Source: Octopus vulgaris (Eukaryota). From it: a DNA stretch of 64,000 nt. A program made the position numbers and the translations under genes. Numbering within the stretch: position 1 is the stretch's first letter; every line of letters starts with the position of its first letter. The stretch covers positions 51,088,001 through 51,152,000 of the forward strand of contig OX597830.1 in the NCBI GenBank assembly GCA_951406725.2, given 5' to 3'. A model generated the notes under the pieces. It ran no database searches and had not been told where the DNA came from. It saw only the letters and a program-made list of their open reading frames with translations. Positions 25,636-63,532 of the stretch are shown in pieces.

Positions 25636-26235
25636 GCACACACACCCCACCACAACCTAAGACGGAATAAGATCTCCATAAACTGATAATATGAAAATAA
25701 TACAATACACAGATAAATAAATGGAATGAAATAACTATATACATAAACAAAATAAATTATATTACATTAAAGTTTTTAAAAAAGAAATAAATGAAAAAGT
25801 AGATATAAACAAATGCATAAATAAATAAAAGTAAATTAAACGAATGAGTATAAACATTGGATACTGATAATGCAGGCACCATACATATTCCCACAGACCT
25901 ACTAAACATAGACGTACACAGGTATATGCGCATGTGCAAATAAAGACACACACGACAGGAATACAAAATGGCAGATCATTAGTAAGGAGAGACACACAGA
26001 AAAGAAAGAAGAAAGCAAAGGAGTGCTGATGAGGTCACAGAAATGTGACGAAAGAACTCTGGCCGAAATACAATCGACATAAAATAAAGCTGAAGTAAGT
26101 GAACACCAAATATATAGTGCGTATGTTTTCATTGGCTAAACTGGCAACATGACCATCTCCAAATAAACAAGAGTAAAGAAGAGAGACAGAGACAGGCAGA
26201 AACAAGGAAAATGCCACTTATATTTGAACACTATA

Positions 26236-62530: not shown

Positions 62531-62726
62531 AACACATAAATGCAATAATAATGGGCTTTAGACATTCATTTATTTACTTATTTACTTAATAAAAATTTAG
62601 CAATTAAGGACAACTTCTTAATAAGGAAAACTTAACAAGAAATTATCGGGTAGATAGCGTCGTTGATGTTGATCAGTTGGTTGCCCGGCTTTGACGATGT
62701 AGGGTCGTTTATTTATGATACGTCCA

Positions 62727-62773
62727 GACTTGCTGATGAATACATAGGTATGAAATCACAGGTGATACAAGTC
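62727..62773 (+). ncRNA. Type I hammerhead ribozyme, copy 1
   Basis: GACTTG-CTGATGA-ATAC-atag-GTAT-GAAA-TCAC-ag-GTGA-TA-CAAGTC: stem I 6 bp, stem II 4 bp, stem III 4 bp plus A-U, intact core. Predicted cleavage after AUA at 62767. Confidence 0.85.
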
Positions 62774-63185
62774 CATATTTTAAATGTCTTACTTTGAAAA
62801 ATTGCATTCGGTGGGATTAGTAAAATTTTTGGTAGAAATGACTAATTTTGTCCCTCTTAGCGTGTGGCATGTATGTATAATAATGCCCTCTATATATAAA
62901 TTTAATATGTTCAATGAGAAAGAATTATTTTCGAAATTTTTTCTCTTATGAGGTTTTTCACGCTATCTACCCGATAATTTCTTGTTAAGTTTTCCTTATT
63001 AAGAAGTTGTCCTTAATTGCTAAATTTTTATTCCGAAAAAACTTTTCCTTTCCCGAAATGCAATTCGTAAAAGTCTGACATTTACCGGATGTAATATATG
63101 TAAACTAACCCATGTGCGTCGTTGATGTTGATCAGTTGGCTGCCCGGCTTTGACGATGTAGGGTCGTTTATTTATGATACGTCCA

Positions 63186-63232
63186 GACTTGCTGATGAAT
63201 ACAGAGGTATGAAATCATAGGTGATACAAGTC
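63186..63232 (+). ncRNA. Type I hammerhead ribozyme, copy 2
   Basis: GACTTG-CTGATGA-ATAC-agag-GTAT-GAAA-TCAT-ag-GTGA-TA-CAAGTC. Predicted cleavage after 63226. Confidence 0.85.
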
Positions 63233-63478
63233 CATATTTTAAATGTCTTACTTTGAAAAATTGCATTCGGTGGGATTAGTAAAATGTTTGGTAGAAATGA
63301 CTAATTTTGTCCCTCTTAGCGTGTGGCATGTATGTATAATAATGCCCTCTATATATAAATTTAATATGTTCAATGAGAAAGAATTATTTTCGAAATTTTT
63401 TCTCTTATGAGGTTTTTCACGCTATCTACCCGATAATTTCTTGTTAAGTTTTCCTTATTAAGAAGTTGTCCTTAATTG

Positions 63479-63532
<54 letters not shown>

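Follow-up and report, generated by a model that had tools for sequence, protein, structure and literature searches.

Layout of the insertion and its distribution in the genome

The window, by which we mean the whole 64,000-nt stretch of Octopus vulgaris DNA that was analysed, carries near its right-hand end a compact repetitive insertion with a simple order: inverted arm – microhomology – direct units – (TA)n (Table 1). Its direct arm amounts to 1.8 units, whose overlapping parts differ at 4 of 366 nt. The tandem period is 459 nt, and the segment between the two predicted hammerhead cleavage sites, which we call the monomer, is exactly one period. The inverted arm is 100% identical over 73 nt to 62960-63032; its outer end coincides with one of two internal start sites described below, and the flank beyond it is AT-rich and non-(TA)n. 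The sequence from the start of this arm to 63032 is predicted to fold into a single continuous duplex. No ORF of at least 150 aa overlaps the element, which we therefore class as non-coding, and its layout is not that of an LTR retroelement. Neither does the element carry the ORF with RT and GIY-YIG endonuclease by which an autonomous Penelope-like element (PLE) is recognized. The original prediction, made from the letters of the window, had likened the monomer to the circular RNAs of retrozymes, and this reading is borne out by the tandem period, the type I hammerhead in each unit, the non-coding character, the dispersed multicopy distribution and the high predicted self-pairing; it had missed the perfect 73-bp DNA inversion that adjoins the monomer, as well as the Penelope-type architecture. 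We consider it very probable that the element is an animal non-LTR retrozyme that inserted recently, a non-coding repeat with hammerheads whose predicted fold has been kept by compensatory change and which was likely copied into AT-rich DNA by a PLE enzyme.

Table 1. Features of the retrozyme insertion (positions in the window).
Feature	Position	Strand	Remarks
Whole insertion	62588-63481		inverted arm, microhomology, direct units, (TA)n
Inverted 5' arm	62588..62660	-	monomer 193-265 reversed
Microhomology, inverted/direct arm junction	62657..62660		4 nt; BLAST segment overlap and sequence
Direct arm	62657..63481	+	monomer 349-459, 1-459, 1-255
Hammerhead 1	62727..62773	+	type I, minimal; predicted cleavage after 62767
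Monomer, cleavage to cleavage	62768..63226	+	459 nt
Helix H1, 5' arm	62781..62811	+	
Helix H2	62858..62965	+	62858-62864 with 62959-62965; closes junction holding H3, start site 1 and H4
Hairpin H3	62866..62887	+	just 5' of start site 1
Internal start site 1	62892..62908	+	monomer ~125-141; AT-rich; genomic copies have fixed 3' ends here or at site 2
Hairpin H5	62973..63011	+	12-bp stack; just 5' of start site 2
Internal start site 2	63022..63032	+	monomer ~255-265; first part predicted unpaired
Helix H1, 3' arm	63053..63084	+	
Arm H6/H7	63087..63184	+	just 5' of hammerhead 2
Hammerhead 2	63186..63232	+	predicted cleavage after 63226
(TA)n target microsatellite	63480..63529		right end (site 2)

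The element belongs to a superfamily of repeats with units of 455-500 nt that are 60-99% identical. A search of the 2.8-Gb genome with the monomer gave 1703 candidates, 40 of which were scored and yielded 141 matches. Of two hammerhead patterns, the first occurs 1245 times (4 for its reversed control) and the second 2219 times (23 for its control), the second including families with no demonstrable link to the retrozyme of the window. Within the superfamily, family A has the 459-nt unit, family B units of 476-481 nt (~91% identical), family C a 480-nt unit (76%) and families D, E and F units of 495-502 nt (~65%). Family B monomers carry a ~20-nt tandem duplication over H3, just upstream of start site 1 (alignment A1, columns 105-147). 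One family E insertion is carried inside a larger repeat, so that it turns up on C1 four times with the same flanks (L160, L161, L164 and L165).

Long arrays also occur, some with 30 or more units. The largest (G000:C1:64639640-64655252; L053-L060, L075, L249 and L250) consists of ~31 family B units of 481 nt with a short inverted arm, and variants are common to non-adjacent units in it (6, 3 and 2 units), which suggests either duplication at the DNA level after insertion or assembly effects; an 11-unit array is uniform save for one homopolymer change. Shared variants of this kind are what one would expect if the repeat were a satellite DNA spreading by unequal crossover or extrachromosomal circles, with the ribozyme as a mere passenger. 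We find this hard to credit, however, for the superfamily in general, given that most copies are dispersed and only 0.2-2 units long, that their 3' ends are fixed while their 5' ends vary, that inverted arms occur among them, and that the ribozyme stems covary.

The predicted hammerhead ribozymes

The hammerhead of each unit has an intact core, a 6-bp stem I, a 4-bp stem II with a tetraloop and a 4-bp stem III; the CUGANGA and GAAA core, the NUH site, the three stems and the open stem I are those of a type I hammerhead. Rfam detected no hammerhead and nothing reached its gathering score across the window, while at E<=10 the matches around the element were TA-repeat artefacts and two chance matches only. 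Across families, 7 of the 8 core pairs in stems I and II show covariation, and stem III is invariant. Since stems I and II are longer in the close relatives L205 and L217 and in families C, D and E, the ribozyme of the window is probably a shortened derivative. Judging from this sequence, tandem transcripts would self-cleave to unit length; when retrozyme dimers were tested in the Xenopus study, 8 of the 9 failed to cleave (10.64898/2026.07.22.740005). The active ribozyme fold is a minor predicted state, with 0.5% and 0.06% of the circular ensemble, and lies 2.0 and 3.9 kcal/mol above the MFE, the catalytic fold competing in the circle with a pairing between core and stem III, according to a model without tertiary contacts. 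In the predicted fold of the linear monomer, the first six bases pair with 63186-63191 (stem I), which brings both ends together.

A monomer with strong predicted self-pairing

The original prediction described the monomer as extensively self-complementary, and in both linear and circular mode it indeed folds far better than its dinucleotide shuffles. The linear MFE is -130.7 kcal/mol, compared with -90.2 +/- 5 for 100 shuffles (z -8.11; 0 of 100 shuffles), and the circular MFE is -123.9 (z -7.72, 40 shuffles), with 68% of the circle paired and 20 G-U pairs. The minus strand of the monomer gives z -3.95 (40 shuffles) and 7 G-U pairs, and the background in the same 64 kb, taken from the 22 of 50 complexity-filtered 459-nt windows that were folded, runs from z +1.9 to -3.5. 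The long helix that had been proposed (H1) lies at the coordinates given, without a differing letter; its interruptions are a 2x2 and a 4x4 internal loop and a single bulged A. The proposed 7-bp helix (H2) is exact. Some of the local hairpins are not conserved, and ATTAGT/ACTAAT is absent from the MFE structure and broken in subfamilies L029 and L030 and in family C. The window copy is slightly better paired than the family norm, because two of its pairing letters are minority states: where it has the U-A pair 62787/63078, 18 of 22 monomers have a U.C mismatch, and only 4 of 22 share its G at 62916, which extends the GAGAAAGAATT hairpin.

The predicted fold is branched rather than rod-like, with 12 bp as its longest uninterrupted stack. 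Such a stack is short for Dicer. Among copy-private changes on the sense strand there are 52 A>G and 64 T>C, on ~781 A and ~1044 T sites, hence no A>G excess, and the earlier suggestion that the monomer is an ADAR or Dicer substrate is not supported. Read-through of the inverted arm would, according to the folding model, give a perfect duplex of at least 73 bp and a better dsRNA substrate than the monomer. Contigs of three presumed-RNA runs cover the monomer, mostly with the letters of sister families, and one of them joins across the ribozyme, where a tandem and a circle are indistinguishable. The size, the U-rich self-paired fold and the hammerhead do resemble those of viroid-like circles, and for the mussel circles both RNA-RNA replication and editing are left open (PMC7229834), so that one might imagine an endogenised autonomous viroid-like RNA, its rod serving RNA-to-RNA replication or as an ADAR/Dicer substrate. 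This seems most improbable to us: in addition to the branched fold, the short stack and the lack of an A>G excess among private changes, no hammerhead was found on the minus strand of the unit, and the retroposition footprint (see below) accounts for the copies.

Covariation outside the ribozyme

For the covariation analysis (alignment A3) 14 representatives were taken from 256 near-full matches, the helices being those predicted from the window copy alone; alignment A2 was taken without row L062, which runs into flank. With the ribozyme included, both partners have changed in 25 of 88 pairs, compared with 15.2 after shuffling (0 of 500 shuffles). With the ribozyme and H7 removed, the count is 17 of 65 against 8.4 (again 0 of 500), slid controls giving 1-5; these are counts of sequences and not of independent events, in copies that are best-scoring matches and not a random draw, some of the both-side changes rest on one decayed copy or on the alignment, and the shuffle ignores relatedness. 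Because the non-ribozyme pairs change on both sides more often than expected, we take the fold to be under selection and, as far as aligned copies can tell, the body of the RNA outside the ribozyme to be structurally constrained.

Pairwise comparisons point in the same direction. Between the window copy and five diverged families, the broken pairs number 4 vs 11.4, 10 vs 18.6, 9 vs 16.5, 5 vs 10.7 and 11 vs 20.3 under a position-permuting null (p 0.0003-0.008 for the deficit; p up to 0.011 for the excess of compensation), the five comparisons not being independent of each other. For the close subfamily L029 the pairwise permutation test was not significant. An earlier and more conservative permutation null gave mostly non-significant results (p 0.04-0.24 for the non-ribozyme helices and 0.54-0.85 for H1); we prefer the position-permuting one because the earlier null fixes which sides have changed and is consequently blind to compensation. 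In the same five families, stem positions change at 13-26% compared with 24-38% elsewhere. The sense strand folds better than the antisense in all 6 of the families tested, the five other than that of the window giving z -2.2 to -5.7 for sense and +0.5 to -2.7 for antisense (15 shuffles each). Finally, 30 pairs have G-U variants, compared with 15 that have A-C variants (p 0.036, uncorrected for relatedness). The original prediction had favoured selection on RNA structure, proposing covariation among genomic copies as the check; the both-side pair counts, the strand asymmetry of folding and the surplus of G-U over A-C all speak for it.

The helices differ considerably in how they are conserved. 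H6 is the best covarying of those outside the ribozyme (7 of 17 pairs with both-side changes), H3 has 2 such pairs of 5, H5 is shortened yet retained in families D and E, and H7 has been remodelled between families. H2 is paired in 97.6% of cells, 4 of its 7 pairs never vary and its sequence is nearly invariant, and we infer that it is a candidate protein-binding element. In H1, as in H2, both the letters and the pairing are conserved; most of H1 is conserved in sequence and compensations are few. As evidence for selection, this main helix is therefore weaker than the original prediction implied: it shows 1-2 compensatory pairs per family comparison, significant in one of the six, that with family C (p 0.012; the remaining five give 0.06-0.28), and its G-U and A-C variants stand at 11 vs 9.

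Sequence conservation with so little compensation in H1 and its balance of G-U and A-C variants, together with the inversions that PLE insertions constantly make (about half of those scored here have an inverted arm), might be taken to mean that the self-complementarity is simply a decayed, neutral DNA inversion captured in the monomer. There is little to recommend such a view, which the pair-change counts and pairwise permutation tests already largely refute. The arms of H1 are kept across families that are 60-65% identical and change at a rate below that of other positions; its outer extension has different letters in families D and E, yet the pairing persists; compensatory pairs are present in H1, H3, H5 and H6; and the sense strand folds better in every family. 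An inversion may well have been the origin of H1, but it is not the reason for its retention.

Insertion footprint and Penelope-type ends

The genomic copies have variable 5' ends, while their 3' ends lie at start site 1 or start site 2, nearly always in (TA)n, in five of five scored families. Among 124 insertion clusters, 8 were left out (3 share flanks with another and 5 run off the locus edge), leaving 116 to be scored. One-armed insertions end at site 1 or 2 in 53 of 57 cases. The 59 two-armed insertions comprise 45 with site 1 at one end and site 2 at the other, 2 with the same site twice and 12 with an end elsewhere; when both ends are at sites, it is thus one of each in 45 of 47 (p 1.6e-11). 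The two exceptions are the window copy itself, with site 2 at both ends and its left end outside (TA)n, and a copy that resembles an inverted duplication with flank. At L026 (G000:C15:77312355-77313204) each of the two arms stops at site 1 and has the same flank, as a larger inverted duplication or an assembly effect would produce. In 41 of 47 comparisons, the arms of the same insertion resemble each other more than they resemble the family mean; in 2 the distances are equal, and in 4 the arms are further apart. An apparent clustering of 5' truncations at helices did not survive scrutiny, the peak at position 1 being mostly a BLAST edge effect.

A partial tandem, an inverted 5'-truncated arm, two internal 3' ends and an AT-rich target are all found here, and this is the layout of a non-autonomous PLE. 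In PLEs, two adjacent internal RT start sites are described as giving the 'tail' (PMC11167929), which is reported at one of the inverted pLTRs (PMC3846280, PMC8557442). By analogy with these accounts, we read the two-end pattern as the PLE signature of two internal RT start sites spaced by the tail. Each start site lies directly 3' of a conserved hairpin (H3 and H5 respectively), and together they flank the 3' strand of H2.

Search for an autonomous partner

The genome contains young, intact PLE ORFs in many copies, one of 781 aa (Pfam RT and GIY-YIG) and one of 775 aa, and two of the three PLE families examined end in (TA)n. No match of the retrozyme to these families, P1 (781 aa), P2 and P3 (775 aa), was detected, nor did 48 GIY-YIG loci and 29 loci of the third family give a pLTR or tail match, the best 150 of 6136 GIY-YIG candidates having been scored. 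The PLE-retrozyme matches in L118, L154 and, weakly, L247 turned out to be either copies of the retrozyme or short, unexplained matches close to PLE fragments, and the ORFs beside hammerhead loci look by eye like ordinary LINE RTs.

Two of the PLE families deserve a brief description. The first (L141-L148, e.g. L144:268-3968, G000:C6:133343500-133350000) is young, with many intact copies and two ORFs, one of ~479 aa without a convincing Pfam match and the other the 781-aa RT and GIY-YIG frame; its terminal repeat contains CCAAT/TGACGTC repeats and a hammerhead-like motif whose core is a U3-A8 variant, and it ends in (TA)n. The second (L219-L248, e.g. G000:C3:43179963-43183961) is very young, with a 775-aa open frame and many copies of identical score; its 3' region is built of simple repeats, in which no canonical hammerhead pattern was found.

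A possible mechanism of insertion

The footprint and the fold could be linked by the following scheme. Tandem transcripts would cleave themselves to unit length, and stem I together with H1 would hold the two ends in proximity so that a host ligase could close the circle; circularisation by host ligase is described for mussel and axolotl (PMC7229834). The H2/H3/H5 domain might then be the handle for a PLE protein, which would nick both strands of the (TA)n target; reverse transcription would be primed at site 1 from one strand and at site 2 from the other, and joining of the two cDNAs at microhomology would leave the arms back to back. Going one step further, the conserved fold might be a structured origin for twin-primed reverse transcription, with H2 and H3/H5 presenting two single-stranded sites ~120 nt apart on one circle, so that a PLE dimer could prime each from one cut strand and run round the circle, generating the strict pairing of a site 1 arm with a site 2 arm. 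We offer this last reading tentatively and would not be surprised if it proved wrong. If it is true, families that are 60-99% identical constitute a ready covariation map of recognition by a Penelope enzyme.

Alternatively, the template could be a linear multimeric transcript and no circle at all, the fold serving protein binding and ribozyme folding only. This has to be taken seriously, even if we would not ourselves bet on it. The anole PLE is reported to use mainly uncleaved RNA, with cleavage dispensable in vitro (PMC11167929), and the long arrays could supply multimers. Furthermore, 7 of 175 inner arm ends, one of them in a 7.5-unit array, fall within -4..+3 of the cleavage site against ~3 expected, an excess confounded by TA microhomology that gives at most a weak hint of cleaved linear templates. 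Against a linear template one can set the 6 of 59 two-armed insertions in which both arms exceed one unit, which fits a circle without requiring one, and the near-identical arms and uniform 11-unit array, which are compatible with a single circular template but do not demand it.

Comparison with known retrozymes and PLEs

Earlier work describes animal retrozymes as circRNAs with a high degree of self-pairing that are likely mobilised by PLEs (PMC7229834), and non-LTR retrozymes have been treated as non-autonomous PLE derivatives (Li, Clavereau and Pollet 2026, 10.64898/2026.07.22.740005). Self-pairing being an expected property of animal retrozymes, its finding here is in itself ordinary. The octopus element resembles the animal non-LTR retrozymes of Cervera and de la Pena (2020, PMC7229834) in being a short, non-coding, low-GC tandem with high predicted self-pairing and a type I hammerhead in each unit, and its ribozyme, like those of the mussel in that account, has no contacts between loop 1 and loop 2. 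The unit is longer, however (455-500 nt in the octopus, ~170-400 nt there). The text of PMC7229834 gives neither covariation outside the ribozyme nor a two-site end rule, both of which are analysed here. With the Xenopus retrozymes (10.64898/2026.07.22.740005) it shares the co-occurrence of PLEs, the presence of monomers, dimers and multimers and a variable unit length (51-972 bp in Xenopus); the PLE link is drawn there from similarity to pLTRs, whereas here it is drawn from the insertion footprint, no pLTR match having been found among the PLE loci compared.

The likeness to PLEs, as described for PAc of Anolis (PMC11167929), the Adineta Penelopes (PMC3846280) and Naiad/Neptune (PMC8557442), extends to several traits: the tandems are partial and truncated at the 5' end, one arm is inverted and likewise 5'-truncated, the joints show microhomology, and the targets are AT-rich or (TA)n; there are also a hammerhead in the repeat, two internal RT starts and a tail at one end only. 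Unlike PLEs, the octopus element has no ORF, and the tail between its two sites measures ~105-125 nt instead of 30-40 nt. Site 1, moreover, has TA-like microhomology to the target, whereas PAc is reported to initiate without homology (PMC11167929).

What the octopus families add is comparative evidence for structural selection on the non-ribozyme body, and a map that ties conserved helices to two RT start points. The assembly of tandem and inverted PLE insertions and the use of a circle as template are treated as open questions in the papers cited above, and a 459-nt RNA whose start sites are mapped, and of which compensatory variants occur naturally, makes a practical substrate for tests. Our literature search, which covered mainly the main texts of openly accessible papers, found no paper on cephalopod retrozymes; likewise, in the main text of the retrozyme papers cited we found no covariation analysis of the retrozyme body, and supplements such as figures S4-S9 of PMC7229834 may hold related folds.

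Other hammerhead-bearing sequences

The window contains a second, isolated hammerhead-like motif at 26020-26080, with a CTGATGA core at 26026, a 5-bp stem II and GAAA; its stems I and III are ill-defined, and by profile search it is unrelated to the retrozyme. Elsewhere in the genome there are many further non-coding hammerhead families (L051, L052, L064-L070, L200, L202, L203, L206, L208-L214 and L218), in which stem III begins in the same way and the tails, a few hundred nt long, often end in (TA)n. In some of them stem III is perfectly palindromic and could form only in a dimer.
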